Assembly (NCBI GenBank): GCA_001029635.1
Contig: CP011209.1
Span: 80,983-144,982 of the forward strand
DNA length: 64,000 nt
Direction of reading: 5' to 3'
DNA from: Candidatus Wolfebacteria bacterium GW2011_GWB1_47_1
Lineage (GTDB): Bacteria > Patescibacteriota > Minisyncoccia > UBA6257 > UBA9933
Positions 1,573-47,113 of this stretch are shown here, in pieces (position 1 is the first letter of the stretch; every line of letters begins with the position of its first letter). A program made the translations under genes and the position numbers. Below the pieces are notes generated by a model that had not been told where the DNA came from, made no database searches, and saw nothing but the letters and a program-made list of their open reading frames with translations.

Positions 1573-2886
1573 CTATAGGATGACAAACAGGAATTCCTTA
1601 AACGAGCCGATCACATAATCGAGCATCTCGCGGGTCAGGCCCGGGTACACTCCGATCCAGAACGTATTGTTCATGATGGTATCGGTATTGGCTAGGTCGC
1701 CAACGATACGGTGCTCGATCGCATAGTTCTTGAAGTACGGTTGCCGCGTAGCATTGCCGGCAAACAGCAGTCGCGTGCCAATTTTCCGACTGTCCAGGAA
1801 TTTCAGCAAATCGATCCGATTAAAGCCCGCATTCGGTTTGATCGTAAGCGGGAATCCAAACCAGCTCGGATCCGCACGGGGATCCCAGCTGGGCAGTATG
1901 AAGTGGTCAAAAATAGCTTCATCCTGCTCGAACATGCGATACAGATACCTAAAGTTCTCCTTCCGCTTCTGGATAAATTCCGGCAGGCGTTCCAACTGGG
2001 CCAATCCAAGCGCCGCTTGGATGTCGGTACCCTTCAGGTTGTATCCGATCTCGCTGTACACATACTTGTGATCGTACCCATGGGGCAAATCGCCATGTTG
2101 GTTGCCGAACCGGTTGCCGCAAAAATTGTCGACACCAGTCGGGCAGACGCAATCACGTCCCCAATCCCGCAACGATCGAACGATCGTATTGAGTAGTGGG
2201 TCGTCGGTCAGTACCGCTCCCCCTTCAGCCGTCGTAATGTGATGAGCCGGGTAAAAGCTGCAGGTCGACAGATGCCCGAACGACCCGGTATGTCGGGTAT
2301 CGAGCTTTGATCCAAGTGCATCGCAGTTGTCCTCGATCAGCCACAGTCCACGGTTATAGCAAAACTCCCAAAGGGCTCTCACGTTAAACGGATTACCCAG
2401 CGTATGGGCGATGAAGACGACTTTGGTCTTGGGCGATACGGCACTTGCGATTGCCTCGATTGACGCGTTATACGTACTCAGTTCGACATCCACGAACACC
2501 GGCACCGCGCCGACCTGGATGATCGGGTTGATCGTGGTCGGAAACCCGGCCGCGACCGTGATCACCTCATCGCCCCGCTTAAGCCTACGCTTTTCCGGAA
2601 TTCGGAACGATGTAAGCGCCGAAAGCGCCAACAGATTCGCGGATGAGCCGGAATTGACGAAGGAGCAGTAGCGCGTGCCGATAAACTCGGCGAGCCGCTC
2701 CTCAAACTGTTTTGCGAACTTGCCTTCCGTCCACCAGCCTTCCAGCACCGCATCGATCATCATTACTAGTTCGTTCCTGCCGAAAACCTTGCCGGAAACC
2801 GGCACAGGAGTTACCCCGGGGACAAACGCGTGAGCCCCTACACTTCTTTTTCTTACCGCCTCGTCAATCAGCCGACTGATGTCCAT
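1573..2886 (-). CDS. DegT/DnrJ/EryC1/StrS-family PLP/PMP sugar aminotransferase/dehydrase (RfbH / CDP-4-keto-6-deoxyglucose-3-dehydrase E1-like, ~437 aa)
   Basis: ORF 1573..3027 translation has the DegT fold signature (GxxxFxxxLAEFIGTRYCSFVNSGSSANLLAL...). Internal ATG at 2886-2884 (MDISRLIDEAV) is preceded by GGGGAGG; the upstream 47 codons look like an ORF-finder extension. Family call is robust; the E1-versus-aminotransferase distinction is not verified. Confidence 0.7.
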   Translation of the reverse strand: MDISRLIDEAVRKRSVGAHAFVPGVTPVPVSGKVFGRNELVMMIDAVLEGWWTEGKFAKQFEERLAEFIGTRYCSFVNSGSSANLLALSALTSFRIPEKRRLKRGDEVITVAAGFPTTINPIIQVGAVPVFVDVELSTYNASIEAIASAVSPKTKVVFIAHTLGNPFNVRALWEFCYNRGLWLIEDNCDALGSKLDTRHTGSFGHLSTCSFYPAHHITTAEGGAVLTDDPLLNTIVRSLRDWGRDCVCPTGVDNFCGNRFGNQHGDLPHGYDHKYVYSEIGYNLKGTDIQAALGLAQLERLPEFIQKRKENFRYLYRMFEQDEAIFDHFILPSWDPRADPSWFGFPLTIKPNAGFNRIDLLKFLDSRKIGTRLLFAGNATRQPYFKNYAIEHRIVGDLANTDTIMNNTFWIGVYPGLTREMLDYVIGSFKEFLFVIL

Positions 2887-2959
2887 AGTGAACCTCCCCG
2901 TTCCCTTGATGGTAATGCGATGAAATTGACAAAAAGTTTCTGCCCCTAGCGTCGCCCAT

Positions 2960-3469
2960 TTAAAAAATTTTGTCAATGTCGGGGAAGTGGGACGTTCGCT
3001 TTGTGTCCAATATCGCCTTTCGAACATTCTTCCATAAAATCCGATGTTCAGGAATAATATCTTTCGGCATCGTTTTAAAAAACGTCCCCTGTGCCGGACG
3101 ATCGCTTTTACTTAAAAACACCAATGATACACCACTCCCCCGAGGGCTGTTCCAATAATTGAGCGGGAATAGGAATTTGTATTTTTTGATATGCAACCCT
3201 ACTTCGGCAATAGCCATTTTCTTGATCCGCTCATCAACCGTTTCCCGATACCGCATCAACCCTCCCGGAAAATGCCACCCTTTCCACCATTGGTCTTCAC
3301 GCCAAGTAAGGAGTATCTCTCCTTTTTCATTCATAACAACAAGCTCACACGCAATAAACGGTACTACATCACACAGGGCGTCAAATACCGGCTGAGGCAA
3401 TCCGCTATGAGGATCTTCTATTTTCCCCAAGAGCGTAGCGAGCTGTTCTGTTTCTTTTTTGGTAAGCAT
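2960..3469 (-). CDS. Nudix hydrolase, GDP-mannose mannosyl hydrolase (NudD/Gmm/WcaH)-like
   Basis: 169 aa; KGWHFPGGLMRYRETVDERIKKMAIAEVGL resembles the atypical Nudix box of E. coli Gmm ([30 protein letters not shown]). Paralog at 12549-13046. Confidence 0.65.
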   Translation of the reverse strand: MLTKKETEQLATLLGKIEDPHSGLPQPVFDALCDVVPFIACELVVMNEKGEILLTWREDQWWKGWHFPGGLMRYRETVDERIKKMAIAEVGLHIKKYKFLFPLNYWNSPRGSGVSLVFLSKSDRPAQGTFFKTMPKDIIPEHRILWKNVRKAILDTKRTSHFPDIDKIF

Positions 3470-3475
3470 GTATCT

Positions 3476-3499
3476 GTCATTCCCGCGAAGGCGGGAGTC
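3476..3499. repeat. REP-like hairpin GTCATTCCCGCGAAGGCGGGAGTC
   Basis: Second copy of the 1409-1433 element, between two minus-strand genes. Confidence 0.6.
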
Positions 3500-3541
3500 T
3501 ATTGCTGATCTAATTTTTATTCTGATAGTTTAATTATAAAC

Positions 3542-3569
3542 AAAAAAAATGAGGGGGTCGAACCCCCTC
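3542..3569 (-). terminator. rho-independent terminator after methyltransferase gene
   Basis: GAGGGGG-TCGAA-CCCCCTC perfect 7-bp GC stem followed by an 8-nt T-run on the minus strand, 30 nt downstream of the stop at 3600. Confidence 0.65.
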
Positions 3570-3599
3570 ATCGGATTGTATATTTTGCGCGATCAATTC

Positions 3600-4763
3600 C
3601 TATGCGAACTCGATTTTGTTGTCCCGGAGTACTGCAACGTCCGCTCCGAAATTCAACTGTCTCAACGTTTTCAGTACTTCGTCAGGATAGAGCCCGGGGA
3701 CCATGACGATCACAAGATCGACCGGATTTTCCTCCAAGTGGCTCGGTGCCACGATATTAAAATGTGTGACCGGAGTGAATCTTCCCTGTTTGAACTTTGC
3801 GGAATCAATCACATAGGCAATATCGGTGATATTACTCAGTGCCAGCAGCGTTAATGTTCTATGACCCGCCCCCCACACCGCTATCTTCTGGTTATTTGTC
3901 ACGTAGGTTGCGACGAGACGCTGCAGCTCGTTAATGAGCAAATGCATCGGACCGCGGCGACCAAAAAGGTTTAGAGCCTCTCGCTTTTTCACCGTTGCCG
4001 CAATGTCATTCTCTTCGTTGATGATCCGGCATTCCAGTACGTCAAACCCGTTTGCCTCAAAAGCATGGGTCAACGTCCTCGTCGTGAAGTACGAAATGTG
4101 ATCGGGAACGAATTCGTAGAGACATTTCGTCTTAAGCAGGTATTCCAGGTTGGGGACAGTTACAAACCCCACGGCATTGGCCGCCAAGTTGCCGGATATG
4201 TTTTCGATAATCCTACCAGGATCGGGCAAATGCTCGAGATAGTTCAGACAGATGAACGCATCGAAGGGGCCTCCGGCTATCGCGCCCCTGTCTCCGATGT
4301 ACCGCTGGACCATCGTCCTACCCAAAGCCGCTCCCCTCTCTACCGATTTTCCGGACGCTTCCACCCCTGTTGCTTGCATGCCGACTTCTTCCAAAACATC
4401 CAGCATCGCACCTTCGCCACAGCCGATATCCACTACCTTTTTACCTGCAAGTCCGAATCGCTCGACCAACTCTTGCATCTGGCCCAGCCGGGACAATCTT
4501 GCCTTCTCGGATAATGAAGCGGCGGTAATAACCTCCTTGAAGTAGTCCACTGGCTGCATCCCATGCTGCACCAGTCCGCAATGCGAACACTGCTTGATCG
4601 CCAGGGTAATGCCGGTGTCCTCGGCAAATTCATCGATTTCCGGATAATACTGGGCAGCTTTTGGCATCCCTTTCAAAAGAAGAATCTGACCTGCGGGTAG
4701 TGCGTGATTGCACAAATGACAGCGGTTGTTCGAATCCATGGTTCTCTCCTCCTCTGTATTCAA
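3600..4763 (-). CDS. SAM-dependent sugar C-methyltransferase (TylCIII/NovU-like: N-terminal Zn-ribbon + class I MTase + C-methyltransferase C-terminal domain)
   Basis: 387 aa; CHLCNH...CSHCG zinc-ribbon, a VVDIGCGEGAML SAM-binding motif, and a long C-terminal domain. Architecture is typical of NDP-hexose C-methyltransferases. RBS GAGGAGGAGAGAA upstream. Confidence 0.6.
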   Translation of the reverse strand: MNTEEERTMDSNNRCHLCNHALPAGQILLLKGMPKAAQYYPEIDEFAEDTGITLAIKQCSHCGLVQHGMQPVDYFKEVITAASLSEKARLSRLGQMQELVERFGLAGKKVVDIGCGEGAMLDVLEEVGMQATGVEASGKSVERGAALGRTMVQRYIGDRGAIAGGPFDAFICLNYLEHLPDPGRIIENISGNLAANAVGFVTVPNLEYLLKTKCLYEFVPDHISYFTTRTLTHAFEANGFDVLECRIINEENDIAATVKKREALNLFGRRGPMHLLINELQRLVATYVTNNQKIAVWGAGHRTLTLLALSNITDIAYVIDSAKFKQGRFTPVTHFNIVAPSHLEENPVDLVIVMVPGLYPDEVLKTLRQLNFGADVAVLRDNKIEFA

Positions 4764-4858
4764 TTTTTTAGCGCATAACCCAAAATATATGTGGATATAT
4801 GCACTTTTATATACTGACTATCTTATACTGCTTCAAACAATACGTGTCAAGAAAATAC

Positions 4859-5818
4859 TTACGCTTCCTCCTTTTTAAAATACTTACTGCGTAATTCTTT
4901 TGCGTAATTCAAATACAGGTCCTGTCCTACCGCGTCGACATCCAGATTGTCCTGAATGGTCCTGTAATATGCATACAGCTCGGCGATTGCTGCTTTAGAT
5001 GAGGTGAATTTAAAATCACCCATCTCAGAAAGAAGTTTTTTATTGTCCCCGGAATATTCCACCCCGATCCCCGGATTCAATACCTGTATTTCAGTGGTGT
5101 TACCACTAAGCTCATTAATGATGTTTGCGATCGTCACCAGGTCGATCGATTCCGTCGGCGTAACATTGAATATCTTTTCTTTCGAATCGTTATGTATGAA
5201 ATGCCCGATGATCTTATATAAGTCATTAATATAGAGATAATCGTAAACGACATTTTGATTGATCACGATAGGCATCCCCAATAGGCTTTTCACGATCGCA
5301 TTAGCTATGAATTTATACCGATAATCCTCGTATTTTCCGAATATGCCAAATAGCCTGAGGCACACGAGCTGCTCGCTGTTTATATCGCGGACGTACTTGG
5401 AGATTAGGTATTTTGAGTAGCTATGGCTGTCCTCAGGAATATGCTCGTCAAAATATTCCTCTGCCATTTTTTTGTGCCAATGACTCCTTCCATATTCGGA
5501 ACCGCTCCCTAGATTTATCAGCTTTATCGCCGGCGTCATATGCTTCTGCAAATTGAAGAACATGCGCAAATTATGTTCGCACACCTCCAGAGGATAGGTC
5601 TTACCGGATAGGGATGTCGTCGCGGAATGAATGATGACGTCTATATTATTTTTCTTTAAAAATACCCCGACAGCATCGTCGTCGATCAAATTCAACTCAT
5701 TTCTCAATGGAGCAAATACAACATAATTATCCTGCGAAAACAACTCTGTCAAATTGCGCCCGACAAAACCCCTCGCGCCGGTCACTAGGATATGTATAGT
5801 TTTGTTGTCCTTATGCAT
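4859..5818 (-). CDS. NAD(P)-dependent epimerase/dehydratase-family (SDR) sugar nucleotide reductase/epimerase
   Basis: 319 aa; N-terminal Rossmann ILVTGARGFVGRNL. The gene is visibly AT-richer than its neighbours and has no SD. Confidence 0.6.
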   Translation of the reverse strand: MHKDNKTIHILVTGARGFVGRNLTELFSQDNYVVFAPLRNELNLIDDDAVGVFLKKNNIDVIIHSATTSLSGKTYPLEVCEHNLRMFFNLQKHMTPAIKLINLGSGSEYGRSHWHKKMAEEYFDEHIPEDSHSYSKYLISKYVRDINSEQLVCLRLFGIFGKYEDYRYKFIANAIVKSLLGMPIVINQNVVYDYLYINDLYKIIGHFIHNDSKEKIFNVTPTESIDLVTIANIINELSGNTTEIQVLNPGIGVEYSGDNKKLLSEMGDFKFTSSKAAIAELYAYYRTIQDNLDVDAVGQDLYLNYAKELRSKYFKKEEA

Positions 5819-5904
5819 TGATTCAGGATTGTAGGAAAATTATTGCACGCATGACGATACTACTTACAATATTGTCTAATGTAGACCATGCCCATATAAA
5901 AATC

Positions 5905-5940
5905 AAATAAAAAAAGGCCCGGGCATTACGCACCGGGCCT
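5905..5940 (-). terminator. rho-independent terminator after aldolase gene
   Basis: GGCCCGG-loop-CCGGGCC stem followed by a T7 run on the minus strand, just downstream of the stop at 5959. Confidence 0.6.
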
Positions 5941-5958
5941 TCGCAATCCATCGCTAGA

Positions 5959-6741
5959 CTACTGTAATCGCTTCTCAAGCATCTCGATCCTCTTCTCGTC
6001 CTCTGCCTTGACGCGAGAGTAGTACCGACGCTTGCTTTTGAGCCACAGGAGCTCGAATTCGACTGCCTTCAGGATCGCGGCATCGCCGTATTTCCAGGAA
6101 CTGGCCGGGAACACAACCTTGCGCGTCTCGAACTTGTCCACAAGCCCCTCCTGCTCTAACCGCTGTATAACGGGGATTGCTTCCGTGGAAATACCTCCAC
6201 CAAGGCCGGTTTTCAGACCGACCTTCTTCGCCTTTTCCATCGTCCCTTTGCAGATGTCATACACCTCCCCCGAGGTATTAATGACATCGCGACTCAGGCC
6301 CATCGACCCGACAAGGTCGACACGCCCAAGCGTAACTCCGCTCAACCTGGATACATCCGGCAACGCAAGCATCTCATCGAGATTGCGGTATGCCGTAATC
6401 GTTTCCATGTTGAAGGCGAACTCGATGTCACTTGCGTTATCTTCCGCGATCATGTCGCGGATGAGTATCAGAAATTTCGACAAAGCAAACGGCGTTTCCG
6501 CCATAGGGGCGATCAACCCCTTCACGCCGAGACTCAATGCGTTGTACACATCGGTCACCGCCTCAACGCCGCCGATCTTCAGGATGATCGGCAGGCCAAC
6601 GGCCCCCGTAACATCCTTAAGCCGCATCATTTCTTCTATACGGCTTCCTTCGGCCTCGAATTCGGCTTTAATTTCGAATACACCGAAGTCATTTTTCAGC
6701 GACTTCAGCACCTCGATCATCTCGCGCTCTAATACGTTCAT
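5959..6741 (-). CDS. HpcH/HpaI aldolase / citrate-lyase beta-like family (TIM-barrel, pyruvate/2-keto-acid C-C lyase)
   Basis: 260 aa; METITAYRNLDEMLALPDVSRLSGVTLGRVDLVGSMG matches the conserved VDxxxIGxxDLsxsxG region of HpcH/CitE enzymes. RBS AAAGGAGG precedes the ATG. Confidence 0.5.
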   Translation of the reverse strand: MNVLEREMIEVLKSLKNDFGVFEIKAEFEAEGSRIEEMMRLKDVTGAVGLPIILKIGGVEAVTDVYNALSLGVKGLIAPMAETPFALSKFLILIRDMIAEDNASDIEFAFNMETITAYRNLDEMLALPDVSRLSGVTLGRVDLVGSMGLSRDVINTSGEVYDICKGTMEKAKKVGLKTGLGGGISTEAIPVIQRLEQEGLVDKFETRKVVFPASSWKYGDAAILKAVEFELLWLKSKRRYYSRVKAEDEKRIEMLEKRLQ

Positions 6742-6783
6742 CGGTCTACCTCCTTTTCCTTGAGTGATGTCTGGGATCTACGA

Positions 6784-7833
6784 TCACCAGTTGATGTCTT
6801 TCCAGCTTGCGGGATACTGCTTGGACTTCTCTATTTGCGGCAGGATCTTCTGATAAAACTCGGAGTCCCGGTTACCGCAGAGGCAACTCTGCTTGCAATC
6901 GTACGAGAACCACTGCATCGCCAGTCCGCGTTTGACGATCGTCTCAAGATCTTCTTCGAAGATATTCCCGAGACTGATCGGAATCCACGGGCAAGGCAAT
7001 ACGTCGCCGTATGCCGTGATTGAGAAGTGCTTTTTGAGACACAGGCAACCGAACTCGTGGCCATTGTTGACCGACAGATGCGTAGACGCATTATATATAT
7101 CGGTCAACGACTGGATGTACTGCAGATCCTTGGTATCCAGGATCTCATCCTTGGAATCCTCGAACGCGCCGGTCGCCTTCGCATAGATCATGCTGACGTG
7201 CTGATTGAACTGTTTAACGAATTCCAGCTGCTCGATCAGCTCGCCCGACCCGACGAGACTCTTCGTGACTACGATGTTGATGATGACGCCCAAGCCATGC
7301 TTCCTGCACAACTCCAGGGCATCGATGCATTTTTGCCACGATCCTTCCACACCCCTGAATGCGGTATGGTTAGCTTCCAGGCCGTCGATGCTCAGGTGGA
7401 TCCGGTCGACGCCGATGTCGACCAGCCACTTGATCGTTGCTTCATCCAGTCGGGACCCGTTCGTATCCATGCTGATCACAAACCGTTCCGGCCCGATCGC
7501 ATCGACGATGTCCTTGAGGTTGGGGAAGATCAACGGCTCTCCGCCGGATATGCAGATGCTCGCCAGGCCCATTGCATCTGCCTGATCAGCAATTCGCTCG
7601 ATGTCGGCGATAGCCAGAGACCTTCCGCCCCTTTGCTTAAACCGCTCGATGGCGCAATGCTTGCATTTGAAGTTGCACCGGTAATCGCACTGCAACTGGA
7701 TCAGGGCAACGCTTTCCTTGTTCGCAATCTTCTCCGGATGCCTGATGATCTTTGCGTATGCAAGCGGCTTCCGCTCCTTCAATTCACCCCGTGTCTTTAT
7801 TTCCCGTTCCGTCTGTCCATGCTGGTTAGCCAT
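6784..7833 (-). CDS. radical SAM protein with C-terminal Cys-rich (SPASM/twitch-like) auxiliary-cluster region
   Basis: 349 aa; CNFKCKHC = CX3CX2C motif, GGEPL. C-terminal cysteines (CLCLKKH...CPWIP...CKQSCLCG). RBS AGGGAGGT. Tightly coupled to the HAD gene. Confidence 0.7.
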   Translation of the reverse strand: MANQHGQTEREIKTRGELKERKPLAYAKIIRHPEKIANKESVALIQLQCDYRCNFKCKHCAIERFKQRGGRSLAIADIERIADQADAMGLASICISGGEPLIFPNLKDIVDAIGPERFVISMDTNGSRLDEATIKWLVDIGVDRIHLSIDGLEANHTAFRGVEGSWQKCIDALELCRKHGLGVIINIVVTKSLVGSGELIEQLEFVKQFNQHVSMIYAKATGAFEDSKDEILDTKDLQYIQSLTDIYNASTHLSVNNGHEFGCLCLKKHFSITAYGDVLPCPWIPISLGNIFEEDLETIVKRGLAMQWFSYDCKQSCLCGNRDSEFYQKILPQIEKSKQYPASWKDINW

Positions 7834-7837
7834 TTGT

Positions 7838-8599
7838 CTACCTCCCTTTCTTCAGTAATGAGATTATCTCGTTGAGTGCTCTTGCCTTCATATTCGAAAA
7901 ATCCGAAAAGTTGCCGCCAGGATCAAACAGTATGCTTTGACAGTTGAAGTTGTTGGCCATCCTAATGTCGCTTTCGGGCATGTCCCCTACGACGCAAATT
8001 CTCTCCGGCGAAAGCCCGTGCTCTCTGCATAGCAGTTCGAGCATGTACGTATTGGGCTTTCCGACGTGAACATCTGGAGCATGACCCGTTGCGTTGACGA
8101 TTGCGGCAACCAAAGCGCCGCAACCCGGCAATCTTCGATTATTCTCAATCGGATACGAAGAATCGCCATTTGCGACTATTAGCTTGGCTCCTCCATCGAT
8201 CGCGTCCAGCGCCATTGCTATTTTTTGATAGCTGAATGCTGGGTCGATTCCTACGACCACGGCGGATACGCCCGGATCTTCCTTGATGACAATTTCATTA
8301 GACATCAGCTCTCTCCGCAGATCATTGGTGCCGATTAAGTAAATGGGTCCGATCTCTTCCTCTACTAGATAATGAGAAATGCCACGAGCAATGCAATACG
8401 TATTCCCGCTGTGTGCCGGAAAACCAAGGTTGTTCAACTTGTCGACGATCTGCTTCCGCATCTTCCCGGAATTATTCGTCAGGTAGAATATTCGATACCC
8501 CTCCGCTTCAAGAGCGGCAATGGTTTCGATTGCCCCTTCGACGACTTTTTCACCGAGATACAGAGTGCCGTCCAAATCAAAAACAATGCTATCGATCAC
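7838..8599 (-). CDS. HAD-superfamily hydrolase, subfamily IIA (NagD-like sugar-phosphate phosphatase)
   Basis: 253 aa; FDLDGTLY (motif I), GKP, VGD(M) motifs. GTG start preceded by GGGAGGTGG. Confidence 0.7.
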   Translation of the reverse strand: MIDSIVFDLDGTLYLGEKVVEGAIETIAALEAEGYRIFYLTNNSGKMRKQIVDKLNNLGFPAHSGNTYCIARGISHYLVEEEIGPIYLIGTNDLRRELMSNEIVIKEDPGVSAVVVGIDPAFSYQKIAMALDAIDGGAKLIVANGDSSYPIENNRRLPGCGALVAAIVNATGHAPDVHVGKPNTYMLELLCREHGLSPERICVVGDMPESDIRMANNFNCQSILFDPGGNFSDFSNMKARALNEIISLLKKGR

Positions 8600-8724
8600 T
8601 TTACCACCTCCCTATTTTTCTAGATTATAAAAGGCCTTTTGTACTGAAATCGGTATACAACAATTATAGGTTTAAAGCAAGTATTTTACCTAAAAATATC
8701 TATGCCCACACAACCACTGCATTT

Positions 8725-8758
8725 TAAAAAAAGAGCCCCGTAAAGTATAGGGACTCTT
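8725..8758 (-). terminator. probable rho-independent terminator after TPP-enzyme gene
   Basis: Imperfect AAGAGCCCC...GGGACTCTT hairpin followed by T7 on the minus strand. Confidence 0.45.
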
Positions 8759-8766
8759 AAGACAGA

Positions 8767-10566
8767 TCATTCGGGATCGTCAGCGACGATTATCATATTG
8801 GCACCGAATTCATTCCGCGGAAGTAACGGGCTCATATCTTCCAGCGGATTTGATATCATGCGACCGTCTGACTCCTTCCTCGATGCCAACCGTGGAGCAA
8901 AACCATAGTCGGCATCCAGAATAACTTCGCACAACGCCCCTCCCTTGCTCGACAGGACATTGATAATGCCTTGTCTCATATGCACGGTCGAATCTATCCT
9001 GAAATAGTTTAGACCGTACAGATCCGCAAGCTTTGCATTGTCCGGGAAGGAGACACCACAATCCTCGTCGCACCCGATGAAATTGCCCTCGAAGAATCCA
9101 GCTTGGGTCATTCTGATCGAGTGATACCCTTGATTGTTTAGGATAAATATCTTTATCGGCAGATCGTAATGCTTGATAACCTGCAGTTCCTGAAGATTCA
9201 TCTGAATGCTACCGTCCCCTGCGAGGCAGATAACATCCCGATTACCCGCAAAAGCGGCGCCGATGGCGGCAGGTAGGTCGTACCCCATTGCCGCACAACC
9301 TGAGTTCCAGAAAATGCGCTGCCCTAGCTTAACAATACCCGCATGAAATAAACCGACACATGCCGTTCCATTCCCGGCGACTACGATGGCATTTTCATCC
9401 AGTGCGCCCGTCAGCTCCTCGATAAAATGATAGGGATGTACGGACCATTCATTCGGCTTCTTGTACTCGTCTAGAACAACAGGGTACTGCTTCTTGCGCG
9501 CCTGACACCATTCCAGCCATGGTTTATCAACCTGAAAACCTTTGGGAAGATTACCGAGAAGCTTGGTGATAAAAACGTTGGCATCGGAATGAATCAGGAT
9601 GTCGCCTTTGACCGTCGGTTTGCGCAATTCAGCCTCGTCAATGTCGACGATAATCTTTTTTGCGCGGCTGGCGAATGAAGACCAGTTGTAACTTGCCTGC
9701 CTAATGTTATTTCTAGTGCCAAGAAAAACGACGAAATCGGAGTTTTGCAACGCGAAATTTCCCGCGCGACTCCCCAAGGTTCCTATCCTCCCGATAAAAT
9801 GGTTAGATTCGGAAGCGATCAGATCGAAGCCATTGAACGTCGAGACAACGGGGATATTGATCAGGTCGACCAGTCCCAGAAATTCCTTCTGAGCCTTCGC
9901 GATCCTGATACCGTGGCCGGCGACGAGCAAAGGCCGCTTGGCCTTTTGCAATTCATCGACAACCTGGGAGATTGTTTCGTCTTCCGGAGCGATCACGACG
10001 TGCTCCATGCACTCGCCTTGCAGATTCTGCTCCTCGATCAATGCGCCTTGCACATTCAGCGGGATGTCCAGCCATACCGGACCAGGCCTCCCTGAGGTGG
10101 CGATGCGGATGGCCTTTTCTAATTCCGCTCGTATCCTCGTAGGGTCGGCGACCATTGTTGCATACTTGGTCATCGGCTTGACGATGTCAACGATGTTGAT
10201 CTCCTGATCTCCGAGTTGACGCAATCCGATGTCCGAACAGGATGCGAGAGTAGTCTCGAATTTTACCTGACCGGATAAGTAGAGCACCGGGACGGAATCA
10301 AGCCACTGTCCCAAAACTCCCGTCAAGGCATTGGTCCCTCCAGGACCGGACGTGACGCTAACAACTGCCAGATTTCCCGATACACGGGAGTACCCTTCGG
10401 CGGCGATCGCAGAAGCCTGCTCGTGATGGTTGCAGATGTATTTGATACGCCGTTCGTTCTTCAAGGCGTCATTCAAATGCATCGCCCCTCCGCCCGTTAT
10501 GACAAACACGTGCTCAACTCCATATTCGGCCAGATACTTAAAAATATAGTCAGCTACTCTCATCAT
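8767..10566 (-). CDS. thiamine-diphosphate-dependent enzyme, acetolactate synthase large-subunit-like (YerE-type two-carbon branch-forming candidate)
   Basis: 599 aa; N-terminal Pyr domain; central domain; C-terminal TPP motif GDGSIQMNLQELQ...NNQGY. Confidence 0.8.
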   Translation of the reverse strand: MMRVADYIFKYLAEYGVEHVFVITGGGAMHLNDALKNERRIKYICNHHEQASAIAAEGYSRVSGNLAVVSVTSGPGGTNALTGVLGQWLDSVPVLYLSGQVKFETTLASCSDIGLRQLGDQEINIVDIVKPMTKYATMVADPTRIRAELEKAIRIATSGRPGPVWLDIPLNVQGALIEEQNLQGECMEHVVIAPEDETISQVVDELQKAKRPLLVAGHGIRIAKAQKEFLGLVDLINIPVVSTFNGFDLIASESNHFIGRIGTLGSRAGNFALQNSDFVVFLGTRNNIRQASYNWSSFASRAKKIIVDIDEAELRKPTVKGDILIHSDANVFITKLLGNLPKGFQVDKPWLEWCQARKKQYPVVLDEYKKPNEWSVHPYHFIEELTGALDENAIVVAGNGTACVGLFHAGIVKLGQRIFWNSGCAAMGYDLPAAIGAAFAGNRDVICLAGDGSIQMNLQELQVIKHYDLPIKIFILNNQGYHSIRMTQAGFFEGNFIGCDEDCGVSFPDNAKLADLYGLNYFRIDSTVHMRQGIINVLSSKGGALCEVILDADYGFAPRLASRKESDGRMISNPLEDMSPLLPRNEFGANMIIVADDPE

Positions 10567-10723
10567 CCCATCCTCCTTTTAGCTTTCGCCTAATGACAAT
10601 CTTGTTATTTTTAGTAATGATTCTGATTCAGCAATACCATAGACTACGGTTTAAAGCAAGGATTTGCCTTAATCAAAATACGGAAGACCATATAAAAAAG
10701 AACGTTTAAATAACGAATGATTT

Positions 10724-10752
10724 AAAAAAGAGGGGCGTATTTCGCCCCCTCT
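10724..10752 (-). terminator. rho-independent terminator after B12-radical SAM gene
   Basis: GAGGGGCG-loop-CGCCCCCTC stem followed by a T-run on the minus strand. Confidence 0.6.
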
Positions 10753-10753
10753 G

Positions 10754-12406
10754 TTAAATCAGCTCATATATGCCGAATGTACTCGCATACCGTTGCCACG
10801 AGTGGTCCCGCTGTACTATCTGCTTTGCGATGCCCATATAACGACTTGCCCGTTCCACGTCGCCAAGTTTTCCATAACACTTCGACGCATAGTAATAGGC
10901 GAGCGCATGGTCGGCTCGTACCCGTATCGTGTTTTCAAACCCCTTCAGAGCAGTGGCGTAATTTCCCAATCGCAAGTCGTTATTCTCAACGAAATTCAAC
11001 TCGAGATTAAGTAAGTACACCTTTTCCTGTATCCATTCCGGAGTGAACTCGTCGGTCTCGATAACCGCCCGCTTAAAATCACTCCCAATGTGACTGCCCT
11101 TCAAATAGTTCTTGTCGACGCAGATGTCGTACATCTCGCTTCCCACAAGAGGAGCTGCCGTGTAAATACAAAACCACGAAACATCGATGCTCCTTAAAAA
11201 GGATCGAGTATCCTCGATGTCCTGTTTCGTTTCCCCGGGAAGTCCGATGAGGATGTTCGCGTCCGTATTGATTCCCAGTTTGCGGCAATCCTCAATAACG
11301 CGTTTTATCATCGCCGTATTGATCGGTTTATGCATCACCTCCTTCAAGACCCTGTCGCTTCCCGATTCCATAGCCAACACAAGCTCATCAAGCCCGGCGC
11401 TTTTTATCGCCTCGAGCATTTCTTGATCAAGTGCGTACAAGGCCAATCCGCTGTTGAAGAAGATCTTTATCTTCAACTCCCTCGCAATCTGGATTATCTG
11501 CAAGGCCCGCTTCCGATTGATCATGAAACTGTCATCCTGGAATCCGATTGTCTTGGCTCCATATTCTTTTTGAAGCCGGGTAATATCTTCCTTGACCCGA
11601 TCCACGGTGTGATAGCGCATCTTCCGTCCGTGCACCTTATGCGATGCGCAGAAACAGCACAGATGGGGGCATCCTCGTGATGTGGCGACATGAAAGATCC
11701 TTTTTTTATCCGGATCGAAAGAGGAATAGGCATTAACCGTAGGGCTTAATCCATAATCCTCAACTCTCAGGAGCTTGTAATCATAGAACGGTATTTCATC
11801 AAGATCGGAAATGAAATCGTATTGAAACTGGAATCCCGCCTCGCTTTTTCCTCGGGTGATCCACGACGGATGGGAATTCAAAAATCCCCTTTTGTCGACT
11901 GCGTTCACTAATCCCAGCAACGGCCTTTCGCCTTCGCCATAACACAACGCGTCGAAACACGAAGTGACGGCAAAGATCTCCCGGTGCATGATGGTGGGGA
12001 CCCCGCCTCCGGCAATCATCATCGCATCCGGAAATGCGCGCCGCGCCACCTCGGAGATGGCGACCATGTTATGGTACGCGGGAGTGAACAGGGTCGATAT
12101 CCCGATGATGGTCGGATCGAAATCCAACCATTCCTTTCCAGAAAGAACCTCAAGGAACATTTCCGAAAAAGATTTGTAGATGAAATTATCGGTCTTATTC
12201 AGAATAACATTGAAGTCGAGGAGTTTTACCTCGACCGAAGAATGTTTTTTTAAATAAGCACTGAGAGACAAGAGTCCGATGGGCATATCCGTGACTACGC
12301 TGCCGTAATCCCCCGATTTCTTGGAAACAATCCTTTCGCTCGGGAGCGGGTTCACGTAATTTTCATAGCTCACGTACGGTGGCACTACAAATAGAATTCG
12401 TTCCAT
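10754..12406 (-). CDS. B12-binding (class B) radical SAM enzyme, probable C-methyltransferase, with C-terminal TPR-like tail
   Basis: 550 aa; N-terminal cobalamin-binding-like domain; CPHLCCFC (CX3CX2C) radical SAM core. Confidence 0.7.
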   Translation of the reverse strand: MERILFVVPPYVSYENYVNPLPSERIVSKKSGDYGSVVTDMPIGLLSLSAYLKKHSSVEVKLLDFNVILNKTDNFIYKSFSEMFLEVLSGKEWLDFDPTIIGISTLFTPAYHNMVAISEVARRAFPDAMMIAGGGVPTIMHREIFAVTSCFDALCYGEGERPLLGLVNAVDKRGFLNSHPSWITRGKSEAGFQFQYDFISDLDEIPFYDYKLLRVEDYGLSPTVNAYSSFDPDKKRIFHVATSRGCPHLCCFCASHKVHGRKMRYHTVDRVKEDITRLQKEYGAKTIGFQDDSFMINRKRALQIIQIARELKIKIFFNSGLALYALDQEMLEAIKSAGLDELVLAMESGSDRVLKEVMHKPINTAMIKRVIEDCRKLGINTDANILIGLPGETKQDIEDTRSFLRSIDVSWFCIYTAAPLVGSEMYDICVDKNYLKGSHIGSDFKRAVIETDEFTPEWIQEKVYLLNLELNFVENNDLRLGNYATALKGFENTIRVRADHALAYYYASKCYGKLGDVERASRYMGIAKQIVQRDHSWQRYASTFGIYELI

Positions 12407-12548
12407 CTCGCATCTCCTTTTCTATTGGTTTGGTAATGAACTCCTATCTGCCCATAAAGTACAACGACTTCTGATTTAATACAAGACCCAGAGGCAATAT
12501 GGGCAACTTTATTAAATAGCGAATATTTTAATTAAAAAGTTTTACAGC

Positions 12549-13046
12549 TTATAAATATTGCCTGTAAATAGCGTCATGAAATTTCAATAAATTGTCGGGG
12601 CAAGTTTCATGCCACTGCAAGTAGCCAGGATCGGTTTCTTTCATCCCTTTATTTTCCGGAGCAAAATCAGGCGGTAACGAACATTTATACAAGATGGAGA
12701 TAAAATGACCCCTGACATCGCGCTCCTCGTTTATTATTTGATTTATTGCCAGCGGGTTGGGGTCAAAGTCAACTTCCGTGCCTATTTCAGATTTCGCAAC
12801 CTTTTTTATTCTTGTCTCGAATGTTTCTTTAAACCTGATAATTCCGCCTGGTATATGCCATCCTTTTCCGGCGTACTGATCATCTCTCCATGCCAGGAGC
12901 GTACGACCTTTTTCGTCCTGTATTAAAAGATCGACATTGATAAGTGGAGTTGTCTCGCTGATATAATAAAAAATTTCGTCCGGCAAGCCATAGGACGGAT
13001 TCGGAACATGCTTTTTGAGAATTTCAATAGCATCTTTAATTTCCAT
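12549..13046 (-). CDS. Nudix hydrolase, GDP-mannose mannosyl hydrolase (NudD/Gmm)-like, paralog of 2960-3469
   Basis: 165 aa; GKGWHIPGGIIRFKETFETRIKKVAKSEIG. Confidence 0.65.
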   Translation of the reverse strand: MEIKDAIEILKKHVPNPSYGLPDEIFYYISETTPLINVDLLIQDEKGRTLLAWRDDQYAGKGWHIPGGIIRFKETFETRIKKVAKSEIGTEVDFDPNPLAINQIINEERDVRGHFISILYKCSLPPDFAPENKGMKETDPGYLQWHETCPDNLLKFHDAIYRQYL

Positions 13047-13130
13047 ATAAATAACTTACGCCCCCCAACAAGGCATGTCAATTTTATATTGTAGGCGATA
13101 AACCTAGCACGAGTTCATATTAAAGGTATA

Positions 13131-13159
13131 TAAAAAAACCCGCAGCAAAGCCGCGGGGG
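13131..13159 (-). terminator. probable rho-independent terminator after dehydratase gene
   Basis: CCCGCAGC-AAA-GCCGCGGG hairpin followed by T7 on the minus strand. Confidence 0.5.
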
Positions 13160-13175
13160 ATGAGGTAGAGATGTA

Positions 13176-14147
13176 TTACCGTTCCATCTTGAAGTACTTG
13201 CGATACCACATAGACGTATACTCGATGCCCTCCTCGAACGTGTATTGCGATCTCCATCCGAGGATACTAGTCGCCTTCTCGAAGCTCAGGCTTTGAGAGG
13301 GGATCTCGTTCTTCTGTGTGCTGCGGATCACATACTCACACTTTCGCTTCAACGTCTTCGCGATCGCATCGATCAACTCGATAACGGTGAAGTTGTACCC
13401 GGTGCTGAAATTGAACGCTTCGCCTTTGGAGATATCCATCTGCTCCATAAGGGCAACGTACCCGTCGGCGACGTCCTTTACGTAGACATAGTCACGGACG
13501 AACTGTCCGTCGCTGCGAAGCTCGAGCGGCTCGCAACACCAGGTAGCCCGCATGATGCCGGGCACGATACGGTTGAGGTTGAGATCCCCGGGGCCGTAGA
13601 TGTTCCCAAACCGACTGACTGCAACGGGCAGGCCATAGGTCTTCGCGTAGGTCCGCGCGATCAGGTCGGTGCATGACTTGGAGACATCATACGGATGATC
13701 TCCTGCCATCGGCGCATCCTCGGTCGCATTGTCGCACTTCTTTCCGTACGCCTTGTCGCTCGAAGCAACAACGACGCCTTTGACCATCGTCGAACGCCGA
13801 GCTGCTTCCAAGACATTCACCGTCCCCATGATGTTGGTTTCCAACGTCTCACGTGGATTGACGAATGCCGTGTTGACGATCGGCTGTGCGGCGACGTGAA
13901 AGATGTGTTCGATTTCATACCGGGTGACCACGTCAAGTACGCGTTGCGCATCCTTGATGTCGCACGTTGCGCTGACGACATGATCACCAAGCTTCTTGCC
14001 AGCGAAGTAGGACCACGGATTCGATGCTCGGCACGTGATGTGCACATGCGCACCCATGGCGATCAACTTCTCGGTCAGATGTCCTCCGACAAGTCCTGTC
14101 GCTCCGGTGACCAGAACGTTTCGGCCTCTTAAGTCGTGCTTTGTCAC
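13176..14147 (-). CDS. CDP-glucose 4,6-dehydratase-like NAD-dependent epimerase/dehydratase (RfbG/DdhB-like)
   Basis: ORF track gives 13176..14300. The track's start lies upstream of a terminator hairpin at 14243-14260. A GTG start at 14147-14145 (VTKHDLRGRNVLVTGATGLVGGHL) is preceded by AGGAGG with 6-nt spacing. Rossmann GATG motif; SxxxxxYxxxK-type catalytic region (YDVSK). Confidence 0.7.
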   Translation of the reverse strand: MTKHDLRGRNVLVTGATGLVGGHLTEKLIAMGAHVHITCRASNPWSYFAGKKLGDHVVSATCDIKDAQRVLDVVTRYEIEHIFHVAAQPIVNTAFVNPRETLETNIMGTVNVLEAARRSTMVKGVVVASSDKAYGKKCDNATEDAPMAGDHPYDVSKSCTDLIARTYAKTYGLPVAVSRFGNIYGPGDLNLNRIVPGIMRATWCCEPLELRSDGQFVRDYVYVKDVADGYVALMEQMDISKGEAFNFSTGYNFTVIELIDAIAKTLKRKCEYVIRSTQKNEIPSQSLSFEKATSILGWRSQYTFEEGIEYTSMWYRKYFKMER

Positions 14148-14235
14148 ATGCCACCTCCTGTATGCGATTGTCTTAATGCATGGATATGCTATTAGTGTTC
14201 TGACTTTTGTATAGTGATTTTTAATGAAAAAGTCA

Positions 14236-14262
14236 ACAAAAAGAGGGGCCGAAGCCCCTCTC
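14236..14262 (-). terminator. rho-independent terminator after rfbF
   Basis: GAGGGGC-CGAA-GCCCCTC perfect stem followed by a T-run on the minus strand. Confidence 0.6.
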
Positions 14263-14266
14263 ACGT

Positions 14267-15049
14267 TTACCAGACCTTCCAAAACGGATCGCACTCCCAC
14301 AGCTCATTCAGCTCAAGAACTTCCTTTTGAGTGTCCATGGGTTTCCACCTTCCCCCATGGGAAAAGACAGACAGCTCTCCGCGCTCCGCCAGCGGGATGA
14401 ACACGTGTTCGATCATCGAATCGGGGTCAATCAGGTCGAGCGCCTCGTTCTTGAACACCATGAACCCGCCGTTTACGTAGTCGGCGTGTTCGCCGCCTAT
14501 AAAGTCTTTGACCTTCGCCTGGTGAAAATCCCTAGCCTTACCGGTACTGTCATCGACGGAGATCAGGCCGAATCGCTCTTCCTTGTGTACGCCGGTGATC
14601 GTGCCGATCGTACCCTGCTTTTGATGGAACTCGACCAGCTTGATTACGTTGACATTGCCAACCCCGTCACCGTAAGTAAGCATAAAATCTTCACCACCGA
14701 GATGGCGCCGTAAGCGCCTGACGCGCTCGCCCGTAAGAGAATTCAGACCGGTTTCTACAAATGTGACTTTGAAGTCGTCGCAATCGTTGTTGTGAAACGT
14801 CAGCTCGGCGGTCTTCGTGTCGAGCGTGAAGTCGTTCAGGAATGTCCTCCAGTGCAGGAAGTATTCCTTGATCATATCGCCACGATACCCTAATGCGAGG
14901 ATGAATTCGTTATATCCGTAGTGGGCGTAGATCTTCATGATGTGCCACAAGATCGGCTTACCGCCGACGAGCACCAACGGCTTCGGCTTAAACTCCGTTT
15001 CCTCCTTCATGCGAGTGCCTTGCCCTCCGCACAGAATCACCGTTTTCAT
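14267..15049 (-). CDS. rfbF: glucose-1-phosphate cytidylyltransferase
   Basis: 260 aa; MKTVILCGGQGTRMKEETEFKPKPLVLVGGKPILWHIMKIY closely resembles Salmonella/Yersinia RfbF (DdhA). Confidence 0.85.
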   Translation of the reverse strand: MKTVILCGGQGTRMKEETEFKPKPLVLVGGKPILWHIMKIYAHYGYNEFILALGYRGDMIKEYFLHWRTFLNDFTLDTKTAELTFHNNDCDDFKVTFVETGLNSLTGERVRRLRRHLGGEDFMLTYGDGVGNVNVIKLVEFHQKQGTIGTITGVHKEERFGLISVDDSTGKARDFHQAKVKDFIGGEHADYVNGGFMVFKNEALDLIDPDSMIEHVFIPLAERGELSVFSHGGRWKPMDTQKEVLELNELWECDPFWKVW

Positions 15050-15176
15050 ATACCCCCCCTTATTCGGTTGTATCCGCTGTATGTACAGCTAGTTCTAGTT
15101 ACTGTATAAAAATTTTCTCATTAAAAGTCAAACGGTTCTTTGTTGTCCTGCTGCACTTGTTAACGATTAACCAGCC

Positions 15177-15260
15177 CAAACACCACCACCCCGAACGCAA
15201 CTCCGACATTCAAAGATTCCTTTTTTGCCACGCATTGGGATTTTCAAAAATAGTGTGCTT
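15177..15260. repeat. duplicated remnant of the 3' end of the SpoU methyltransferase gene (52 bp identical to 16424-16475, ~70% over a further 30 bp)
   Basis: Direct sequence match CCCAAACACCACCACCCCGAACGCAACTCCGACATTCAAAGATTCCTTTTT. The two copies flank the Fic gene. Confidence 0.65.
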
Positions 15261-16401: not shown

Positions 16402-16887
16402 TCACTTGGCCCTATTCAGAATCCCAAACACCACCACCCCGAACGCAACTCCGACATTCAAAGATTCCTTTTTCCCGTGCATCGGAATTTCCAAAATATG
16501 GTCTGTGCGGGCCAGGATCCCCTTTGGCAGTCCTTCTACCTCATTGCCCATTATCAGGGCTAATTTGGCCGTTTTTGGGGCGTTAAAGCCTATATACGGC
16601 ACCGAATCAGCAGATTGTTCGACTGCGCAAATGGTATACCCCTCCTTTTTTAATCTCCCTATGAGGCGAACAGCCGATTTTGAATATTCCCAAGGAATAT
16701 AATCCTCCGCACCAAGCGATACCTTGGAAATATCTTGACGCTTACGCCCAAATTGGTCGACGGGTTGTGGCGTGATGCCACACAAAAACACCTTCTTTAC
16801 ACCCGCCGCATCGGCAGTCCGGAATATGGATCCGACATTATGCGTACTGCGAATGTCGGGCAAGATGACTACGATTTCCATTCGCAA
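16402..16887 (-). CDS. SpoU-family (SPOUT) RNA 2'-O-methyltransferase, TrmL/TrmH-like
   Basis: 161 aa; size and LCGITPQPVD...ALIMGNEVEGLP...NVGVAFGVVVF match minimal SpoU (TrmL-type) methyltransferases. Confidence 0.7.
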   Translation of the reverse strand: MRMEIVVILPDIRSTHNVGSIFRTADAAGVKKVFLCGITPQPVDQFGRKRQDISKVSLGAEDYIPWEYSKSAVRLIGRLKKEGYTICAVEQSADSVPYIGFNAPKTAKLALIMGNEVEGLPKGILARTDHILEIPMHGKKESLNVGVAFGVVVFGILNRAK

Positions 16888-21609: not shown

Positions 21610-21790
21610 TCCTGCGCATGCAGAAATCCATTACCCTAATTAATTTTTCCTAACCTTTTACGTCGTCATTCCGATCTCATTCGACAGGCTCAGGGCAAAC
21701 TCCGAAGTACTCTTCGGAGTCGAGGAATTTGTTGCAGATTAGTCGACTGCACTCCCTTTCGCTCGGGATGACAGAGTGGGCAAGCTCACA
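21605..21790. repeat. cluster of degenerate GTCATTCC-type hairpin repeats (REP-like) next to the RAYT gene
   Basis: GTCATTCCTGCGCATGCAGAAATCC (21605-21629), GTCATTCCGAT...CTCCGAAGTACTCTTCGGAG, and an inverted GTCATCCCGAGCGAAAGGGAGTG copy (~21741-21775). Confidence 0.4.
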
Positions 21791-37242: not shown

Positions 37243-37271
37243 ATAATATAATTTTAAAATTGAAGGGATGC

Positions 37272-47096: not shown

Positions 47097-47113
47097 TCTT
47101 GGTCATAAAGGTT

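Follow-up and report, generated by a model that had tools for sequence, protein, structure and literature searches.

Sugars carrying a long acyl-derived branch are made by a small set of described pathways, in which an aldolase makes a hydroxylated 2-keto acid, a YerE-like enzyme adds this keto acid to cytidine diphosphate (CDP)-4-keto-3,6-dideoxyglucose, and a YerF-like reductase then reduces the branch (Steitz et al., 2022, PMC9306805). This scheme accounts for erwiniose (ErwE/F/I/J), caryophyllose (MMAR_2331/2332), gastriose (MyGE/MygI/MygF) and a sugar of R. palustris CGA009, and the carboligases differ in the donor that they take, as YerE uses pyruvate and ErwE rejects it (PMC9306805). 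A further YerE-like aldehyde-ketone carboligase, JanthE of Janthinobacterium, accepts pyruvate (PMC12247030). Here we analyze a 64,000-nucleotide stretch of DNA (the window) from Candidatus Wolfebacteria bacterium GW2011_GWB1_47_1 (contig CP011209.1, positions 80,983–144,982), which contains at positions 1573–15049 an island of genes arranged around a YerE-like thiamine-diphosphate (ThDP) enzyme gene. We consider it probable that this island makes a CDP-3,6-dideoxyhexose with a long acyl-derived branch at C-4, further altered by C-methylation and by radical S-adenosylmethionine (SAM) enzymes. The pathway is a new and widespread variant of the YerE-type branched-sugar pathways. To our knowledge, only a handful of C-4 acyl-branched sugars have been described, namely yersiniose, erwiniose, caryophyllose, gastriose, the R. 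palustris sugar and aurantose, all of them from cultured bacteria.

The Carboligase and the CDP-Keto-Sugar Genes

The central gene (8767..10566; like all genes of the island it is on the minus strand) encodes a 599-aa protein with the N, M and C domains of the TPP family (Pfam), in whose sequence the catalytic Glu (E49) and a GDG-x24-NN motif can be read. A first-pass annotation of the window had proposed that this enzyme is YerE-like, and the comparisons agree. The protein scores 350.7 bits with TIGR00118, the acetolactate synthase equivalog model, against a cut-off of 538.35, and all PRK models for acetolactate synthase likewise give scores far below their cut-offs. Its best solved relative is JanthE (8rph, 383.7 bits over residues 2–588), whereas the best acetolactate synthase structure scores 265.7 bits; this placement is one against solved structures. 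Neither ilvN nor ilvC was found among the 31 further open reading frames (ORFs) of at least 150 aa that were scanned in the window, 11 of which have no Pfam match. A bona fide ilvB gene is thus ruled out by the acetolactate synthase scores, by JanthE as the closest solved structure and by the failure to find ilvN or ilvC among the ORFs scanned, and the enzyme is predicted to be a YerE-like carboligase and not an acetolactate synthase. Relatives that are 66–84% identical to it fall into more than 120 clusters at 90% identity.

For the study of gene context, 68 loci around homologues of the carboligase were taken from GTDB species genomes, further loci were added by exact-protein look-ups, and every fetched locus was scored with twelve window proteins. 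Co-occurrence was counted in the 37 GTDB loci of at least 20 kb. In these, as in the window, the carboligase gene adjoins the genes for CDP-4-keto-3,6-dideoxyglucose, with an rfbF gene beside it in 28 loci, an RfbH orthologue in 27 and the dehydratase in 26.

In the window these genes are an rfbF-like glucose-1-phosphate cytidylyltransferase gene (14267..15049, 260 aa; TIGR02623, Pfam NTP_transferase), a gene for an extended short-chain dehydrogenase/reductase (SDR) resembling CDP-glucose 4,6-dehydratase (13176..14147; TIGR02622), and a gene for the CDP-4-keto-6-deoxyglucose 3-dehydrase RfbH/DdhC (1573..2886, 437 aa). The dehydratase-like protein has the Yersinia CDP-glucose 4,6-dehydratase as its best solved structure (1rkx, 138 bits), and its SSDKAY and YDVSK segments align to TSDKCY and YSNSK of that enzyme. 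RfbH reaches equivalog level with NF011936 (656.7 bits, cut-off 423) and scores 533 bits against the Yersinia E1 dehydrase structure 3bcx. The first-pass annotation, which had called RfbH E1-like, proposed looking for the His-for-Lys substitution of the pyridoxamine phosphate-dependent enzymes; the substitution is there, as the segment SFYPAHHIT is identical to that of the Yersinia E1 and places His215 where aminotransferases have Lys. The cysteines of the protein are spaced C188-x57-C246-x-C248-x7-C256, a CX57CXCX7C pattern that we take to be the [2Fe-2S] cluster motif of E1. The His-for-Lys exchange and this cysteine motif rule out an ordinary aminotransferase, and by its sequence RfbH is unambiguously assigned as a true E1-type 3-dehydrase. 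Sequence and context together show the trunk steps that we ascribe to RfbF, the dehydratase and RfbH, and likewise to which families the proteins belong and how their genes are linked.

Conservation of the Gene Block

The loci fall into three tiers according to the identity of their carboligase to that of the window. In the distant tier (38–48% identical) the carboligase gene is found with rfbF, dehydratase and RfbH genes, with or without an SDR gene, and a subset of these loci (Pedobacter, Bdellovibrionales and others) also contains a DmpG/DmpF-like aldolase-dehydrogenase pair. Such a pair beside a YerE-like gene is the published erwiniose architecture, and it therefore serves as a positive control for the comparison. 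In the intermediate tier (51–60% identical) a gene for a protein like HpcH is present in 18 of 22 loci and an SDR of the 319-aa type found in the window in 14. The closest tier (at least 68% identical) comprises the window and ten further independent loci, which are a JGI 804-kb contig (L004), a Desulfococcaceae locus (L005), a marine locus (L006/7), an Elusimicrobia locus (L008), L009, an Omnitrophota locus (L076), L077, L078, L080 and a Parcubacteria locus (L081); L009 is a contig of 2.3 kb that shows only the gene for the Nudix protein termed Nudix 2 below and the carboligase gene.

It is in the closest tier only that the carboligase gene is accompanied by genes for a HAD-IIA phosphatase, a TylC3-type C-methyltransferase, Nudix 2 and radical SAM enzymes; beside the more distant carboligase homologues none of these was found, save a weak HAD match in four loci. 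The typical order in the closest tier is rfbF, dehydratase, Nudix 2, carboligase, HAD, HpcH-like protein, C-methyltransferase, radical SAM enzyme with a SPASM domain, and SDR, often with overlapping stop and start codons, and the genes of the block are 58–80% identical across Omnitrophota, Elusimicrobia, Desulfobacterota, marine and other lineages. Orthologues of the SPASM enzyme are present in L004 and L008 (~70% identity) and in L076, L077 and L078 (552–616 bits, phmmer); L080 has a 353-aa Radical_SAM/SPASM gene in the same position, judged by Pfam content only, and L005 and L006/7 have a SPASM enzyme of another family. Orthologues of the second, B12-binding radical SAM enzyme were found by phmmer only in L005 and L006/7, and L081 has a 549-aa B12 radical SAM protein by Pfam content and length. 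The window and five of the ten further loci encode an E1-type RfbH with the His and the CxCx7C cysteines.

By the names attached to them, homologues of the carboligase, the HpcH-like protein and Nudix 2 come from about 19 phylum- or class-level groups, among them Patescibacteria, Omnitrophota, Elusimicrobia, Desulfobacterota, Chlorobium, Magnetococcales, Calditrichia, Kiritimatiellota, Victivallales, Chloroflexota, Nitrospirae, Eremiobacterota, Desantisbacteria and a Nanoarchaeota archaeon. Metagenomes hold ~1,360 relatives of Nudix 2 and ~4,500 of the HpcH-like protein. Two closest-tier loci contain additional genes for carbon branching or methylation: L004 has a pyruvate-dehydrogenase E1 alpha/beta pair (20392–21794), as in the acetyl-branching of antibiotic sugars, and L081 has a gene for a 735-aa protein in which a B12 radical SAM domain is fused to a SAM methyltransferase (7000–9207).

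Proposed Formation of the Branch Donor

Three genes of the island could form the branch together with the carboligase. The HpcH-like gene (5959..6741, 260 aa) encodes a predicted TIM-barrel protein whose structural model falls in the pyruvate/phosphoenolpyruvate (PEP) superfamily. When it is aligned to the HpcH/HpaI aldolase structure, its E113 and D142 fall on an E and a D that we take to be metal ligands, and on the strength of this model the protein is probably a class II pyruvate aldolase. The HAD-IIA gene (7838..8599, 253 aa) adjoins the carboligase gene in all of the closest loci; its product passes TIGR01460 (114.3 bits, cut-off 100.15) and has glycerol-3-phosphate/phosphoglycolate phosphatase, YutF and chronophin as best solved structures. 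As the HAD protein is closest to the glycerol-3-phosphate/phosphoglycolate phosphatase type, we suggest that phosphate is carried either by the aldehyde partner or by the product of the aldol reaction. The third gene (4859..5818) encodes the 319-aa extended SDR (Pfam Epimerase and RmlD_sub_bind), the family of which is the most frequent accessory beside YerE-like genes (33 loci), and this SDR is a candidate for the reductase of the branch carbonyl, in a YerF-like role.

The first-pass annotation had read the island as a yersiniose-type pathway with a branch of two carbons. A CDP-hexose island with a YerE-like enzyme and rfbF/G/H genes is indeed what we find, but the short branch is the less likely one. 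The HpcH-like gene completes the published parts list of aldolase, YerE-like enzyme and reductase, for which reason the analogy with erwiniose, caryophyllose and gastriose points to a branch longer than two carbons and would fit the island better than yersiniose does. It could be argued that a pyruvate-derived acetyl group is nevertheless attached and reduced by the SDR, with the aldolase-like, HAD, Nudix and radical SAM proteins serving other sugars or functions, as YerE uses pyruvate, JanthE accepts it too, and many distant loci hold only the carboligase with rfbF/G/H and at most an SDR. We find this unlikely, since the HpcH-like gene tracks the carboligase gene through most of the intermediate tier (18 of 22 loci) and all closest-tier loci, since the HAD and HpcH-like genes lie immediately beside the carboligase gene, often overlapping or with gaps of 4 bp, and since the published aldolases of this kind supply a longer donor to enzymes of which one, ErwE, rejects pyruvate.

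Alternatively, the trio of carboligase, HAD and HpcH-like protein might make a molecule that is not a sugar, for instance a keto-acid- or phosphonate-derived substituent that is attached to a glycan later on, with the CDP-sugar genes being independent of it. The HpcH-like fold belongs to a superfamily of PEP-utilizing enzymes, and the B12 enzyme has P-methyltransferase families as its top NCBIfam matches, far under their cut-offs, which would both be in keeping with such a product. On the other hand, the carboligase is a full three-domain enzyme of the YerE/acetolactate synthase type with JanthE as its nearest relative, YerE-like genes are linked to rfbH, rfbF and dehydratase genes as counted above (27–28 of 37 loci for the two rfb genes), and the B12 enzyme is not part of the core. 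The NCBIfam models gave neither a PEP mutase nor a phosphonopyruvate decarboxylase signature, which together with the accessory status of the B12 gene rules out a phosphonate pathway in particular. We consider a non-sugar product very improbable as a whole, and a sugar with a long acyl branch remains the reading that we prefer.

In the intermediate tier the place of HAD is taken by other genes, as the HpcH-like gene is there usually paired with genes for a 3-dehydroquinate-synthase-like protein and a FabG-like SDR (L010–L013, L018, L022–L025, L032, L038, L060, L066, L067, L071 and L075; hosts include Lentisphaerae, Nitrospirae, Bacteroidota, Geobacteraceae and some archaea). This set is an undescribed variant of a donor-forming module. 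By analogy with the known chemistry of the family, phosphate elimination by the dehydroquinate-synthase-like protein would give a methyl end like that of caryophyllose, which suggests, though it does not show, that a phosphorylated keto acid resembling 3-deoxy-D-arabino-heptulosonate 7-phosphate (DAHP) is the intermediate common to this tier and to the tier with HAD.

The Nudix Proteins

The island encodes two Nudix proteins, Nudix 2 (12549..13046, 165 aa), which is a core member of the conserved block, and Nudix 1 (2960..3469, 169 aa; Pfam NUDIX, 34.2 bits). They are 31% identical to each other and both are closest to GDP-mannose mannosyl hydrolase (GDPMH), with a reduced Nudix box that retains a single glutamate, but neither is a member of that family, as they score 39.5 bits (Nudix 2) and 35.3 bits (Nudix 1) with NF011963 against a cut-off of 146. 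The structural model of Nudix 2 is a Nudix fold, and the protein has a nearly invariant W-H pair (H146) that may be the counterpart of the catalytic Q-H of GDPMH. The closest homologue of Nudix 1 among the fetched loci is 58% identical and comes from a Saccharibacteria locus. Nudix 2, in contrast, is conserved at 65–79% and is fixed directly upstream of the carboligase gene. The first-pass annotation was right in seeing two GDPMH-like paralogues, but its suggestion that they control nucleotide-sugar pools seems too weak for Nudix 2, because of exactly this conservation and fixed position. Judging from its family and context, Nudix 2 may edit or clear CDP-sugar intermediates, or it may set free a sugar that the aldolase then uses as its aldehyde.

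The latter possibility leads to a different route, in which Nudix 2, with or without HAD, frees a deoxysugar and the aldolase joins it to pyruvate to give a long 2-keto-3-deoxy acid, which the carboligase would couple to a second CDP-keto sugar, or which would itself be the end product, similar to a nonulosonic acid. Such a route would give consecutive roles to four tightly linked genes (Nudix 2, carboligase, HAD and HpcH-like), and it would agree with the reduced box of Nudix 2, which is of the GDPMH type, as GDPMH frees a sugar and not a sugar phosphate. However, the island has no cytidylyltransferase of the CMP-ulosonic-acid synthetase type, and the window, with its two SDRs, has no 4-ketoreductase that would make a stable free deoxysugar. 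Moreover, GDPMH-like genes are also present in ordinary GDP-sugar clusters, where they have no such role, and homologues are labeled WcaH by JGI. We therefore regard this route as unlikely, and favor the attachment of an aldolase-made keto acid to one CDP-keto sugar.

The C-Methyltransferase and the Radical SAM Enzymes

The assignment of the 379-aa product of 3600..4739 as a TylC3/TcaB9-type nucleoside diphosphate (NDP)-sugar C-methyltransferase, made in the first-pass annotation, is borne out by its domains (Methyltransf_23, 77 bits; Methyltransf_14, 48.2 bits, cut-off 23.5), by its best solved structures, which are the MtmC-type mycarose 3-C-methyltransferase, TcaB9 and KijD1, and by an N-terminal pair of CxxC motifs at residues 7–10 and 51–54, a zinc-ribbon feature. 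A weak hit to PF08421 is seen only in the orthologues from L004 and L005. The protein is 59–67% identical in other closest-tier loci. Going by its family, it most likely acts on a carbon beside the 4-keto group, before the ThDP step uses up the ketone.

The two radical SAM enzymes differ in their standing. The SPASM enzyme (6784..7833, 349 aa; Radical_SAM, 93.4 bits; SPASM auxiliary-cluster domain, 30.2 bits) reaches no NCBIfam equivalog and is a core gene. The B12-binding enzyme (10754..12406, 550 aa, with a TPR-like tail; B12-binding, 52 bits; Radical_SAM, 83.9 bits) has a CPHLCCFC motif that fits the CX3CX2C core and AprD4 as its best solved structure (76 bits); its best NCBIfam equivalog gives 150 bits against a cut-off of 575. 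Domains and motif place it as a class B enzyme, and a methylase chemistry is assumed on that basis. Neither protein reaches the cut-off of any cofactor-maturation family, and in other phyla, too, both are conserved together with the sugar genes. The first-pass annotation had counted both as part of the island; the SPASM enzyme keeps this place, but the B12 enzyme is accessory and lies outside the conserved core. From this pattern of linkage, we take both enzymes to belong to the pathway, with the B12 enzyme as a lineage-variable add-on. Altogether, the comparisons showed neither a bona fide ilvB gene, nor a DegT protein of the Lys type, nor radical SAM proteins of unrelated cofactor-maturation families, the three findings that the first-pass annotation had named as speaking against its proposal.

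Proposed Pathway

In the pathway that we propose, RfbF would make CDP-glucose, which the 4,6-dehydratase would convert to CDP-4-keto-6-deoxyglucose, and RfbH, with electrons from a general ferredoxin/flavodoxin system, would remove the 3-OH to give CDP-4-keto-3,6-dideoxyglucose. The C-methyltransferase would then methylate C-3 or C-5, for which the 4-keto group must still be present. Next, the HpcH-like enzyme would join pyruvate to an aldehyde that is probably phosphorylated, and HAD-IIA would dephosphorylate the product to a hydroxylated 2-keto acid, which the YerE-like enzyme would decarboxylate, adding the acyl anion equivalent at C-4 to form a tertiary alcohol. The 319-aa SDR would reduce the carbonyl of the branch, and late tailoring could be carried out by the SPASM enzyme, as part of the core, and by the B12 enzyme, as an accessory that is probably a methylase of an unactivated carbon. 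The finished sugar would be passed on to downstream glycosyltransferases, Wzx and Wzy_C. The donor keto acid, the order of all steps from C-methylation through to the radical SAM tailoring and all of the radical SAM chemistry are what we infer in this scheme.

Several observations weigh against it. In the trunk, rfbF scores 266.5 bits with TIGR02623 over its full length, just under the cut-off of 300, and the dehydratase-like SDR 196.8 bits with TIGR02622 against a cut-off of 278. In four closest-tier loci (L005, L006/7, L080 and L081) an E1-type RfbH was not seen within the stretch sampled, so that the block does not always come with the 3-deoxy feature. The HpcH-like protein has a weak Pfam match and no NCBIfam model, and structurally it is as near to pyruvate kinase as to the aldolases. 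There are only two SDRs in the window, a simple linear pathway does not account for a GDPMH-like hydrolase among the conserved core genes, and a B12 enzyme in a genome of the candidate phyla radiation (CPR) requires scavenged B12. Finally, neither an E3 (FNR-like plus Fer2) nor another reductase partner of E1 was found among the window ORFs scanned. The first-pass annotation had already remarked on the missing E3, and its absence is the norm for such loci, as a gene with FNR and Fer2 domains is present in only 3 of the 68 related loci and E3 is absent from 65. E1 homologues such as SpnQ run on general ferredoxin or flavodoxin reductases, and the island would represent a natural case of an E1 without a dedicated E3 partner.

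A bolder version of the pathway can be formulated, in which the block makes a class of sugar not seen before, a C-methylated, higher-carbon, C-4-branched deoxysugar, with the Nudix-freed sugar as the aldehyde of the aldolase and with radical SAM chemistry on the CDP-sugar itself, for example closing a carbocycle as in caryose and bradyrhizose or epimerizing or oxidizing the branch. We consider this version improbable. If true, it would bring new radical SAM and Nudix chemistry into nucleotide-sugar metabolism and make the sugar a common epitope on the surface of uncultured bacteria, CPR and DPANN organisms among them.

Organization of the Locus and Its Surroundings

Pfam and NCBIfam profile searches recovered twelve genes within 1573–15049, with the domain content that had been claimed for them. 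The first-pass annotation had counted thirteen co-oriented genes in this interval; the thirteenth, for a membrane protein with a Wzy_C domain, lies on the same strand at 1..1399, where the window edge cuts it after the first 466 of 735 codons. Gene starts were refined by ribosome-binding sites, and most likely the RfbH gene starts at 2886 (437 aa) and not at 3027, the C-methyltransferase gene at 4739, and the dehydratase gene at a GTG at 14147 with AGGAGG upstream, the longest ORF extending to 14300. Of the thirteen genes, for all of which strong Shine-Dalgarno sites had been claimed, nine are preceded by strong GGAGG-type sites.

A division into several operons by terminators, as earlier suggested, is reasonable, as four strong hairpins of the intrinsic-terminator type lie in intergenic gaps on the minus strand, each with a GC-rich stem of 7–11 bp followed by a T run: 3′ of the dehydratase gene (13139..13157), of the B12 radical SAM gene (10731–10749), of the C-methyltransferase gene (3548–3572) and of the RfbH gene (1540–1563). 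The terminator scan gave 25 sites, compared with 16.4 ± 3.6 in shuffled sequence. A further terminator-like hairpin (14241–14262) is situated between rfbF and the probable start of the dehydratase gene, inside the N-terminal extension of the ORF that reaches to 14300, which suggests that the public gene call of the dehydratase is too long or that there is an attenuator between the two genes. A hairpin motif of another kind, TTCCCGC-CTTC-GCGGGAA followed by TGACA, occurs in two exact copies on the minus strand (1408–1428 and 3475–3495), 5–12 nt upstream of the start codons of the Wzy_C and Nudix 1 genes, and in a variant with three mismatches at 47113–47133 (minus strand), where chance would lead one to expect none in the window. 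Both of these genes are without a GGAGG site, and the element may serve translational or transcriptional control of Wzy_C and Nudix 1.

Over 20,566 bp, the window and the metagenome contigs L001 and L002 are 100% identical, and public records list its proteins under Candidatus Wolfebacteria, a CPR member from groundwater. Comparison with L001, which carries the full Wzy_C gene, rules out that the region to the left of RfbH is non-coding; the Wzy_C protein (37.1 bits with Pfam Wzy_C, cut-off 31.7) could be a polymerase, a ligase or similar to an O-oligosaccharyltransferase. Beyond the window edge (L079, 11488–21314) the Wzy_C gene (735 aa) is followed by genes for an HTH_17 protein, a Wzx flippase, two GT2 glycosyltransferases, an FkbM-type methyltransferase (Methyltransf_21), a GT-D, a GT10-like fucosyltransferase and further methyltransferases. 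The earlier statement that there is no glycosyltransferase is correct for the window, as none was found among the ORFs scanned there, but it is an artefact of the window edge, with two GT2, a GT-D and a GT10-like gene just outside. Because Wzy_C, Wzx and glycosyltransferase genes follow directly beyond this edge, the island is the nucleotide-sugar precursor half of a Wzx/Wzy-type surface-glycan locus.

On the other side, the sugar island is separated from a SpoU methylase gene by a gene for a Fic-domain protein (15262–16317). The Fic gene is flanked by a 75-bp direct repeat, ~91% identical (15175–15249 and 16423–16496), which may be the scar of an insertion or a regulatory element that was duplicated. 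Further along, 16925–20983 encodes a 1352-aa protein with three lamin-tail domains and 23388–26552 a 1054-aa protein with a peptidoglycan-binding domain; both are probably surface proteins, and as such candidate carriers or neighbors of the glycan. An IS200-like Y1 transposase gene (21978–22691) and a phage-type integrase gene together with a gene of the major facilitator superfamily that is seemingly truncated (229 aa; 36553–38087) are signs of mobile DNA 7–22 kb from the island. Rfam and tRNA scans of the window gave only two tRNA-Leu genes, both distant from the island.

Significance and Comparison With Known Systems

The block is abundant in metagenomes, it is conserved at 58–80% across phyla, and it is present in a CPR genome of ~1 Mb that affords few pathways, which together imply a strongly selected and widespread surface sugar. 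It also places new enzymes in a defined context, namely a subclade of YerE-like carboligases for tertiary-alcohol synthesis, a new aldolase-like family of the pyruvate superfamily, and radical SAM enzymes whose substrates are probably nucleotide sugars. We found no description of the block, nor of a YerE-like enzyme combined with radical SAM enzymes, in the searchable literature, a scope outside of which lies an in-silico survey by Krug et al. (2024; as cited in PMC12247030) that covers more than 200 YerE-like clusters.

Nudix 2 resembles GDPMH (WcaH/NudD/Gmm) in its fold, its reduced box, its similar size and its place in a glycan cluster based on an NDP-sugar 4,6-dehydratase, but it is linked to CDP-sugar genes and not to GDP-sugar genes, and its conservation is as strong as that of the catalytic core genes. 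Sugars are tailored by several radical SAM enzymes, among them GenK and Fom3 as class B methylases, AprD4 as a diol-dehydratase, and BtrN, HygY and NeoN as twitch/SPASM dehydrogenases or epimerases. The domain architectures of the two island enzymes match those of such proteins, with similarity at superfamily level only, and we know of none among the six that acts in a YerE-type branched-sugar pathway.

The yersiniose A pathway of Yersinia pseudotuberculosis (DdhA-D, YerE and YerF) shares with the island the rfbF, CDP-glucose 4,6-dehydratase, E1 (533 bits), YerE-like and SDR genes. The island differs from it in having no E3 (DdhD/AscD), in having an aldolase-like gene that implies a donor longer than pyruvate, and in having six further tailoring and accessory genes. 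JanthE, although the closest solved relative of the island carboligase (383.7 bits), has a CDG sequence in its ThDP motif (PMC12247030), whereas the island enzyme keeps the canonical GDG.

The closest likeness in gene content is to the long-branch pathways (PMC9306805), as keto-sugar genes, an aldolase-like gene, a YerE-like gene and a gene for an NAD(P)H-dependent reductase are all combined in one locus in the island. The aldolases are of different kinds, as ErwI of the erwiniose pathway is DmpG-like and the island protein belongs to a distinct, weakly HpcH-like family. The R. palustris cluster has likewise added a SAM methyltransferase, but the sugar there is 3-O-methylated and the enzyme of the island is of the C-methyl type. 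Beyond the genes described for these systems, the block has those for a HAD-IIA phosphatase, for a C-methyltransferase of the TylC3 type, for a GDPMH-like Nudix protein and for one or two radical SAM enzymes.

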